48,151 bases of DNA from a virus. Its lineage: Duplodnaviria; Heunggongvirae; Uroviricota; Caudoviricetes. Within the stretch, counting starts at the first letter, position 1. Each line of letters begins with the position of its first letter. The stretch is from positions 1 through 48,151 of IMG/VR virus record IMGVR_UViG_2617270976_000012. One strand, written 5' to 3'. Positions 3,508-4,026 of the stretch are shown here, piece by piece. The notes below the pieces were generated by a model. The model saw only the letters and a list, made by a program, of their open reading frames with translations. It was not told the origin of the DNA and searched no databases. Position numbers and translations under genes: made by a program.

Positions 3508-3685
3508 TATCGCGTCCTCAACAATGAATTTTGTGATGCAGTGCCTGGTGCCTCCAGGTGACGTTAACCAGTTAACAATTAACGCCGGATTAGTTGATGC
3601 TCGTTACGCCCGTAAAATACCGCCTTACTGCTTTAACTGTTCCGCGTGCGCATAGCCGCATTCACCGCATCACAAAATTCACTTT

Positions 3686-3725
3686 AAAAAGGGCGGATAT
3701 CCGTTTCCGCCGAATCACCAGAAAA
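3686..3725 (-). ncRNA. dicF: Candidate DicF-like small RNA (approximate boundaries)
   Basis: Minus-strand RNA UUUCUGGUGAUUCGGCGGAAACGGAUAUCCGCCCUUUUU: 5' UUUCUGGUGA and terminal GC hairpin plus U-run resemble DicF as recalled; about 180 nt upstream of dicB in a 520-bp stretch with no minus-strand ORF. Confidence 0.4.
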
Positions 3726-4026
3726 GTGATAACAGAGGGCGTTGCAGCGGGGTTGTCACTTAAGCGTATGGTCAACCTGACAACCCGGTGTCCTCAGCGG
3801 GGAAGGAATACCCCCGCCATACTTACCGCCGCGCCATTTCGCGGATTGCCACAACCGGAAGCGCACGGTCGAATTAAATTTAACGACTACCTACAGAGAG
3901 ACGAACTTCGCCGTGCGCTTTCGCGTTATGCCCTGACTTTTCAGGGATATATCCTTTTCAGTAAACTGTCAGTGCCGGATTCTTATCCGTGTCCGGCGCA
4001 CGCACTCTACCTCACCTGTGAATAAA

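Follow-up and report, generated by a model that had tools for sequence, protein, structure and literature searches.

A short allele of the dicF locus in a lambdoid prophage, predicted to lack the tested target-pairing regions of DicF

The viral DNA of 48,151 nucleotides (nt) in the IMG/VR record IMGVR_UViG_2617270976_000012 (Caudoviricetes; hereafter, the window) contains, at positions 3508-4026, a stretch immediately upstream of dicB on the minus strand, which corresponds to the dicF region of a dicB-type operon. DicF is the textbook case of a prophage small RNA (sRNA) by which cell division is inhibited; in enterohemorrhagic Escherichia coli, where pchA is a target, it has been connected with the control of virulence. 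The element at 3724-3686 of the minus strand (UUUCUGGUGAUUCGGCGGAAACGGAUAUCCGCCCUUUUU) is a real and previously unannotated dicF allele, and it is invisible to Rfam. It is a positional allele of dicF and not canonical DicF: judged from the sequence, nt 1-10 of DicF and the terminator are kept, and every tested pairing surface that has been defined experimentally is lost. The element probably acts as a terminator and processing cassette ahead of dicB, which yields, if the RNA is stable, a seed-only RNA of 34-39 nt that is unable to silence ftsZ.

The element was located by positional alignment to K-12 dicF, by its fold, and by a terminator scan. Its local minus-strand context is ...GUUAUCAC UUUCUGGUGAUUCGGCGGAAACGGAUAUCCGCCCUUUUU AAAGUGAAUUUUGUG.... 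When the window region 3480-4060 was aligned with the Qin prophage of K-12 (NC_000913.3), where dicF is annotated at 1649382-1649434, the stretch of about 520 nt was approximately 97% identical to the ydfC-dicB spacer of Qin outside three patches, one of which is the DicF body. The two aligned rows are UUUCUGGUGA-CG-UUUGGCGG-UAUCAGUUUUACUCCGUGACUGCUCUG-CCGCCCUUUUU for K-12 DicF and UUUCUGGUGA----UUCGGCGG-AAACGGAUAU-CCGCCCUUUUU for the window. The element thus shares with K-12 DicF the operon slot between the last small open reading frame (ORF) and dicB, a similar spacing to dicB, nt 1-10, the GGCGG/CCGCC base of the stem, and the CUUUUU tail. However, it is 19 nt shorter: its length is 34 nt up to the CCC and 39 nt including the U-run, as compared with 53 and 58 nt in K-12. 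The 27-nt apical stem-loop UAUCAGUUUUACUCCGUGACUGCUCUG is replaced by the 10-nt AAACGGAUAU, and nt 11-15 of K-12 DicF, CGUUU, which form part of the xylR seed, are UUC in the short allele.

A preliminary description of this DNA, made from its letters, had proposed a DicF-like RNA in the dicF position of a dicB-type operon, at 3686-3725 of the minus strand. The RNA it quoted was found at 3724-3686, and its position in the operon is borne out by the flanks. The description also holds in that the element is shorter than K-12 DicF, ends in a terminator like that of DicF, and lies about 180 nt upstream of dicB. The shared 5' seed-like sequence stands for nt 1-10, whereas nt 11-15 of the xylR seed differ. 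As a whole, its observation was confirmed in part, and its interpretation was supported in part.

The 39-mer folds into a single-stranded 5' end of 13 nt (UUUCUGGUGAUUC) and a hairpin with a stem of 6 base pairs (bp) and a loop of 8 nt (GGCGGA-AACGGAUA-UCCGCC, 3711-3692), which is followed by C and five U residues. The energy of this fold is -10.7 kcal/mol, as compared with -15.9 kcal/mol for the canonical hairpin. The same hairpin was returned by the consensus scan as a terminator-like site: five of the six pairs of the stem are G-C, and the tail is CUUUUU. The distance from the U-run to the ATG of dicB (3507) is 178 nt, the equivalent in K-12 being 169 nt. The ORF-poor stretch as a whole is structured, as had been proposed, with a minimum free energy (MFE) of -196.6 kcal/mol and a z value of -4.8 against 100 dinucleotide shuffles. 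Its GC content of 50.7% is higher than that of the flanking genes (40-42%) and lower than that of the whole window (52.9%); the label "GC-rich" is therefore correct in relation to the flanks only.

The Rfam DicF model (RF00039) gave no match at E<=10 in a 1-kb search of window 3300-4300, none at E<=1 in the short-allele locus of O157:H7 (L145), and none at the gathering threshold in the whole window. K-12 DicF, used as a positive control, scored 76.7 bits, the gathering score of the family being 48 bits. The covariance-model search, which the preliminary description had offered as a check, thus did not recognize the element as DicF. Two other features of DicF are present in the allele: the position in a dicBF operon between a ydfC-type ORF and dicB with homologous flanks, and, by prediction, a Rho-independent terminator hairpin with a U-run as the 3' end. 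Of the single-stranded 5' seed UUUCUGGUGACGUUU, which pairs with xylR at AAACGUCACC, only nt 1-10 are kept, and the apical/3' region with the ACUCC anti-Shine-Dalgarno sequence is absent. The allele belongs at the dicF locus, yet by its lack of a score with the covariance model, its missing ftsZ-pairing region, and its incomplete 5' seed it falls outside the DicF family.

The 3' region of K-12 DicF pairs with the ribosome-binding site of ftsZ and with pykA, and its 5' end pairs with xylR, as demonstrated by compensatory mutations (Balasubramanian et al., PMC5069750). The 27-nt apical part holds the ACUCC anti-Shine-Dalgarno sequence that pairs with ftsZ, pykA, and manX; in the case of ftsZ, the apical UUUUACUCCG pairs with CGGAGAGAAA at the ribosome-binding site. 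This apical part is absent from the short allele. Duplex energies with the four K-12 targets (manX, ftsZ, pykA, and xylR) were calculated by RNAduplex, in which accessibility is ignored, and were compared with shuffled controls. As a whole RNA, canonical DicF gave -53.5 kcal/mol with manX (none of 200 shuffles was as good), -40.8 kcal/mol with ftsZ, -39.0 kcal/mol with pykA, and -33.7 kcal/mol with xylR. The corresponding values of the short allele were -19.2, -19.4, -20.1, and -26.8 kcal/mol. Those for manX, ftsZ, and pykA were no better than shuffles (188 of 200 equaled the ftsZ value), and the xylR duplex lies at another site, where bases of the terminator stem are used.

When the parts of the RNAs were considered separately, the canonical 5' end formed a duplex of -15.8 kcal/mol with xylR at the validated AAACGUCACC site (1 of 300 shuffles), and the canonical apical part formed one of -22.3 kcal/mol with pykA (0 of 300 shuffles). 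With every target, the loop of the short allele gave values of -4.0 to -7.0 kcal/mol (-4.0 kcal/mol with ftsZ); the averages of the shuffles, about -7 kcal/mol, were equally good or better. The xylR duplex GGUGACGUUU/AAACGUCACC of canonical DicF shrinks to GGUGA/UCACC in the short allele, and the validated site is not used. The short allele is thus predicted not to repress ftsZ, pykA, or manX, and its validated xylR pairing would be lost.

The idea that the element is still a true DicF, which inhibits division via ftsZ, could appeal to the same locus, the same first 10 nt, and the same terminator base. It is very improbable in view of the missing ftsZ-pairing region, the ftsZ energies of both the whole RNA and the loop, and the lack of an RF00039 match. 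Furthermore, control of ftsZ is abolished in K-12 by the DicF9 allele, which is mutated in the ftsZ-pairing region (PMC5069750). Canonical DicF is bound by Hfq and causes filamentation when it is overexpressed. Because the apical region that pairs with ftsZ, pykA, and manX is absent from the short allele, a test for filamentation or ftsZ repression is expected to be negative.

Alleles were counted in 5426 complete E. coli genomes with a 65-nt query for canonical DicF and a 52-nt query centered on the short allele. Canonical DicF was present in 3969 genomes (73%). The short allele was present in 441 (8%), mostly O157:H7 and other Shiga toxin-producing E. coli, where it occupied 524 places with one to three per genome. 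A 56-nt "third" allele (GGCGGCAUCUGUUUGCCCAUGAACUGAUGUCCGCC) was found in 290 genomes (5%), O157:H7 included, and an allele of the ApPE4 type in 43. Strain 2017C-4109 carries the short and the third alleles together. The short allele is further present in E. albertii and in IMG/VR prophage contigs; there was no match among the sequenced phages of INPHARED. With RF00039, the canonical allele scored 76.7 bits, a seedless allele 58.9 bits, the third allele 43.5 bits, which is below the Rfam threshold, and the L178-type allele 38.8 bits; the short allele gave no score. Rfam annotation registers only canonical-like alleles, and counts of the kind "four copies in O157:H7" probably do the same. The dicF locus of E. 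coli has at least three common alleles, which differ exactly in the two target-pairing regions, and a strain, O157:H7 included, can hold several of them. Deletion and complementation studies of dicF and prophage-based predictions of ftsZ control should allow for this mix of alleles. No description of a short or variant DicF was found in a literature search from whose coverage several key DicF papers were missing.

The seedless allele, at L164 4652-4703 and in L214, has the ACUCC apical loop and scores above the Rfam threshold. It is without the UUUCUGGUGA 5' seed, and the base of its stem is compensatory (GGUGG/CCACC). Comparison of the allele sequences indicates that the two pairing regions of DicF appear to be exchanged independently. 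The short allele itself occurs as six distinct sequences, in which the stem and the 5' end are kept; variation is confined to the loop (C/U and A/G), one G-C pair of the stem that becomes G·U, and the base after the stem.

These distributions bear on the "altered targeting" that the preliminary description had suggested. Altered targeting is possible, and the element is explained at least as well by a reduction to a cassette for termination and processing. A functional trans-acting variant would be an Hfq-dependent sRNA of about 34-39 nt with the 13-nt 5' end and a new or narrowed target set, which might retain those targets for which DicF nt 1-10 suffice. In its favor, the first 13 nt and the stem are kept in the six short alleles while the flanks and the loop vary. 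The allele continues to be carried by 8% of the complete E. coli genomes and by E. albertii, and it often accompanies canonical copies. With its single-stranded seed, terminator hairpin, and U-run, it is built like a minimal sRNA, and the independent swapping of 5' seed and apical loop in other alleles fits a diversification of targeting. We nevertheless regard such a variant as unlikely. The sole duplex above background is a weak one with xylR (-11.2 kcal/mol; 13 of 300 shuffles were as good), which is off the validated site and of which a large portion, UUUCUG, is shared with canonical DicF. With so few substitutions, the invariance of the 13 nt is not significant. A short hairpin with a tail of five U residues is poor for stability of the Hfq type, and the absence from INPHARED phages agrees with the decay of a prophage allele. 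Provided that the short RNA is stable, it would offer a natural seed-only DicF with which phenotypes that depend on nt 1-10 can be sorted out.

A simple deletion in K-12 DicF was rejected as the source of the short form, since AAACGGAUAU does not occur within the canonical hairpin. Instead, AAACGGAUAUCCGCC, which comprises the loop and 3' arm in the short allele (within 3711-3686, minus strand), is the exact reverse complement of GGCGGAUAUCCGUUU. In a post hoc comparison with long alleles (L155, L157, L208, and L210), GGCGGAUAUCCGUUU was found to fit the consensus of their 5' arm, GGCGG-N-AUC-N-GUUU, if one additional base is allowed behind GGCGG, which the ApPE4-type allele also has. The reverse-complement match suggests that the short form arose by a deletion combined with either an inversion (flip) of the loop or template switching.

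Upstream of the element, the preliminary description had noted a long imperfect inverted repeat and left it unexplained. The repeat exists, with core arms GCGCACGGCGAA at 3918-3907 and UUCGACCGUGCGC at 3873-3861. In the MFE fold it is extended to an interrupted stem of about 20 bp within a hairpin at 3930-3850 (minus strand; arms 3930-3907 and 3873-3850), of which the apical part at about 3906-3874 is hypervariable. Of 26 distinct variants, 22 form the outer stem in their MFE folds. The 5' arm has undergone four independent changes from C to U, which result in G·U pairs on the operon strand, and a few variants break a pair. No Rfam family for the repeat was found at E<=10 on 3300-4300. The scheme in which RNase III and RNase E process long DicF reportedly goes back to Faubladier in 1990. 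In K-12, the transcript from dicBp yields DicF species of 53 and 190 nt (Ragunathan et al. 2023, PMC10448788). The 5' end of the 190-nt species needs RNase III and that of the 53-nt species RNase E, and no internal promoter was found (PMC10448788). The difference between the two lengths, 137 nt, when counted upstream from the DicF 5' end (3724), leads to position 3861, the base with which the repeat's 3' arm ends. For this reason, and by analogy with K-12, we infer that the inverted repeat is the RNase III stem that generates the 5' end of long DicF; the published processing of the 190-nt species would then account for it.

In comparison with K-12, both candidate RNase III duplexes, the spacer, and the body of the long species (module A, below) are kept almost base for base, whereas the species itself would be about 176 nt long here instead of about 190 nt. 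The spacer at 3748-3725 (minus strand) contains the conserved CUGCAAC and the presumed RNase E context, UUAUCAC followed by UUUUCUGG. It is identical to that of K-12 except for an A-to-C change two bases before the DicF 5' end, and the sequence contexts of the processing sites are conserved with K-12. It should be mentioned that in the MFE fold the beginning of the non-coding stretch at 4000-4021 (UCACAGGUGAGGUAGAG) pairs with 3715-3742 of the minus strand, that is, with the spacer and the DicF 5' seed (CUCUGUUAUCAC...GUGA). This pairing closes a 300-nt domain, and the seed would be masked by it in the unprocessed transcript. One A-U pair becomes G·U in the K-12 version of the pairing.

The spacer between dicF and dicB (module B; 3685-3508, minus strand) is STnc100-like. 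It is closed by a 21-bp long-range helix, 3683-3663/3543-3523, which ends about 15 nt before the Shine-Dalgarno sequence of dicB, and it contains hairpins at 3586-3560 and 3558-3544. For a 72-nt DicF described in the literature, RNase III is reported to generate the 3' end at a distance of 19 nt beyond the terminator. The position 19 nt past the CCC of DicF falls inside the 21-bp helix. By analogy, this helix is likely to be the RNase III site for both the alternative 3' end of DicF and the 5' end of dicB mRNA.

The STnc100 model (RF02076) aligned over its full length with 3693-3475, with a score of 31.2 bits and E = 9e-5 in a 1-kb search, and thus remained under the gathering score (47 bits). 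Eight other loci gave 29-39 bits at the corresponding position. The helices of STnc100 are kept with compensatory differences in the cmscan alignment, and they are reproduced by the MFE fold. Module B appears to resemble STnc100/PasD (RF02076; bioRxiv 10.64898/2026.05.13.724894) in its long closing helix and in the hairpins GUUAAU/GUUAAC and CCUGG-AGGCA-CCAGG. Unlike STnc100, it remains below the threshold, it has no terminator of its own, and its 3' end runs into the ribosome-binding site of dicB or, elsewhere, of kil. Because of this last feature, module B seems to behave as a 5' leader rather than as a stand-alone sRNA. In Shigella phage 75/02 Stx and in phage vB_Apl-pPE4, module B alone is located directly upstream of kil.

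Several related copies were observed. A full-length STnc100 sRNA (RF02076, 145.6 bits) is located at 17475-17684 on the plus strand of the window; three clustered tRNA genes lie about 840 nt upstream of it. As judged from these matches, the prophage carries a canonical STnc100 and a diverged copy of the leader type (3693-3475). In P1 (L152 2842-2961), an STnc100-like element with a sub-threshold score of 33.4 bits is placed immediately upstream of tciA, which is annotated as a possible cell-division inhibitor; this position mirrors that of module B before dicB and kil. In vB_Apl-pPE4 (L155 1620-1760), a whole terminator cassette consisting of spacer, hairpin, U-run, and the beginning of the STnc100-like module is duplicated in tandem between module A and kil. 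Actinobacillus is listed as the host of this phage, and its sequence is E. coli-like and lambdoid.

The body of long DicF, module A (3857-3749, minus strand), comprises about 105 nt. From covariation, we infer that it forms three hairpins and a pseudoknot. Hairpin H1 is formed by 3844-3840/3833-3829, H2 by 3818-3811/3803-3796, and H3 by 3786-3778/3758-3750. In the pseudoknot, the H1-H2 linker CGGUAAGUAUGG (3827-3825 and 3822-3817) pairs with the H3 loop CCAUACGCY (3771-3763). The structure was examined with 89 distinct sequences (alignment A4). In this alignment, 96.1% of the cells were paired, as compared with 36-49% in slid controls. Five pairs were changed on both sides, a number reached by 2 of 500 shuffles, and these changes were seen in 14 cells, reached by none of 500. 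Examples are the replacement of UA by CG in the pseudoknot (GCAUGG/CCAUGC in P1) and in H3 (P1 and P7). The aligned sequences are closely related, and most of them were retrieved by an exact pattern of the H3 loop; the invariance of this loop is thus partly by construction. No Rfam family for module A was found at E<=10 on 3300-4300. A pseudoknotted fold was not described in the DicF literature searched, the coverage of which did not extend to the primary papers of 1990, 1994, and 2019.

Module A occurs at 77-98% identity in many prophages and also in the cdtI and Stx2c phages, Salmonella phage F1055, P7, and P1. It is located after cI in cdtI and about 900 nt into the operon in the window. 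In 78 of 80 distinct loci, a hairpin with a U-run follows 44-81 nt after H3, and the remaining two have terminators by eye. The upper stem of this terminator has at least 11 forms. The "dicF-like region" of P1 (NC_005856.1, 68791-68892) and its counterpart in P7 carry module A with 77-84% identity and compensatory changes, followed by an intrinsic terminator; in P1, the module begins about 45 nt downstream of the C1-controlled Pban promoters. However, the P1 terminator is a different hairpin, GCCCAUCUUCGGGUGGGCG-U6, without the DicF seed, and the downstream genes are tRNAs and tciA, not dicB. The 48-kb window contains a single copy of module A: the covariance model R1 gave 152.9 bits, and the next best match 11 bits. 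No second copy was found in the rightward operon, either by a motif search with 3 mismatches or by an unfiltered covariance-model search.

The put RNAs of HK022 are cis-acting processive antiterminators. Each early operon has its own copy (putL and putR), with two stems in about 70 nt, and these RNAs suppress downstream terminators in cis via the zinc-binding domain of the RNA polymerase beta' subunit. Like put, module A is structured, follows early phage promoters, directly precedes a terminator, and occurs in phages without a recognizable N gene. It differs in having three hairpins and a pseudoknot in about 105 nt, as compared with the two stems of put, and in its single copy in the prophage, with no putR-like second site. 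A comparison of module A with positions 22000-30000 of HK022, the region expected to hold put, gave no blastn match at a word size of 7. These comparisons of sequence, architecture, and copy number speak against a homology of module A to HK022 put.

The terminator diversity behind module A raises a different reading of the locus. The dicF locus would then not be an sRNA gene in the first place; it would supply a conserved regulatory unit of phages with a variable terminator arm. In this unit, module A works in cis, canonical DicF and the short form are two of at least 11 hypervariable terminator alleles, and sRNA activities are secondary acquisitions. Module A, which could be an antiterminator, an attenuator sensor, or a platform for folding and processing, would set the amount of transcription past the cassette into toxic early genes (dicB, kil, and tciA/ban of P1). 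The probability of this reading is considered to be low. A cis role of module A in read-through, folding, or processing is at the level of a guess, and antitermination by module A is purely hypothetical. Module A, shared with P1, is nevertheless a testable candidate for the means by which phages without N control read-through into their toxic early genes.

For the reading as a cassette ahead of dicB, the following scheme of transcription, processing sites, termination, and RNA stability can be proposed. The stretch would be the non-coding and heavily processed center of a dicBF-type early-left operon of a lambdoid prophage. Transcription would start at a repressor-controlled promoter near 4770 and proceed through the DUF1391 gene and a 128-amino acid (aa) ORF into four RNA modules: the hairpin 3930-3850, the pseudoknot domain 3857-3749, the short dicF allele 3724-3686, and the STnc100-like spacer 3685-3508. 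By analogy with K-12, RNase III might cut the first hairpin, which would give the long species of about 176 nt. RNase E might then cut between UCAC and UUUUCUGG, so as to leave an RNA of 34 nt, counted up to the CCC, or of 39 nt if the U-run is included. Its 3' end would result from termination at the U-run or, on read-through transcripts, from RNase III cleavage in the 21-bp helix, and the latter cut would free dicB mRNA as well. Most likely, the short allele would act in cis, as an intra-operon terminator and processing cassette that limits dicB expression. Any role in trans would depend on the 13-nt single-stranded 5' end.

Several points weigh against this scheme. All of its processing steps are carried over from K-12, and the assignment of the RNase III site to the inverted repeat relies on a length of 190 nt that was estimated from gels. 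Two positions ahead of the presumed RNase E site, the window has C where K-12 has A; cleavage could be changed as a consequence. The hairpin is weaker than that of canonical DicF (6 bp, a loop of 8 nt, and five U residues), which could lead to inefficient termination and an unstable RNA. As for the loss of function in trans, the duplex energies take no account of accessibility and cover four K-12 targets only. Furthermore, the invariance of the 13-nt 5' end among the short alleles could reflect selection on a seed acting in trans, although four variable sites in 39 nt are statistically uninformative.

The stretch is non-coding. Contrary to the preliminary description, in which no minus-strand ORF exceeded 15 codons, ORFs of 37 aa (TTG start), 36 aa (GTG), and 33 aa (ATG) exist on that strand, and the plus strand contains an ORF of 143 aa (TTG) at 3594-4025. 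These ORFs, together with the "hypothetical proteins" that some phage and genome annotations place on homologous DNA, are what a coding function of the stretch could be built on. Such a function is scarcely conceivable. The 143-aa antisense ORF and the three small sense ORFs gave no Pfam match. Of 98 distinct homologous regions, only 3 have the 143-aa ORF in intact form, and the longest antisense ORF elsewhere is mostly 50-70 aa. In addition, the insertions and deletions relative to K-12 are not multiples of three, and the substitutions follow the RNA helices.

The gene order around the stretch is DUF1391, ORF, RNA, dicB, DUF1482, and exonuclease. The dicB gene (3507-3319, minus strand; 62 aa) was assigned by Pfam DicB (PF05358, 125.5 bits) and is annotated as dicB in a genome that is 99.9% identical. 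The last coding gene before the stretch is the hypothetical ORF of 128 aa (4413-4027, minus strand), which replaces ydfC. It gave no Pfam family, and in the related genome it is annotated as a hypothetical protein of 124 aa. A candidate operon promoter, TTGACA-18-TAGATT, is located at 4771-4742 on the minus strand by consensus match only. Its TTGACA -35 hexamer is contained in a perfect palindrome with a 16-bp stem at 4785-4747 (minus strand; ACAATTAAAAACTGTTGACACAAAACAGTTTTTAATTGT). From this arrangement, the palindrome and the promoter probably constitute the operator and promoter of the dicB-type operon, and the candidate promoter is likely to be a repressor-controlled equivalent of dicBp.

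Between the repressor gene (5745-5344) and the operon promoter, a RelB/RelE-ParE pair of type II toxin-antitoxin genes (63 and 95 aa) is inserted at 4838-5316 on the minus strand, as annotated in genome LZHX12, which is 99.9% identical. After the pair comes a strong hairpin of the terminator type at 4821-4802. A sok antitoxin RNA (RF01794, 112.4 bits) was found at 12061-12236 on the plus strand, which implies a hok/sok type I module in the prophage. The three-tRNA cluster mentioned above consists of tandem genes at 16388-16634 on the plus strand (72.5, 44.7, and 70.1 bits with the Rfam tRNA model), an arrangement shared with late regions in lambdoid phages of the Stx type. At the left edge of the window, an ORF resembling InsA of IS1 occupies 1-276 on the minus strand. 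The "exonuclease" of 823 aa downstream of dicB and DUF1482 (567-3038, minus strand) has a long acidic low-complexity middle region and a C-terminal part resembling 3'-5' exonucleases.

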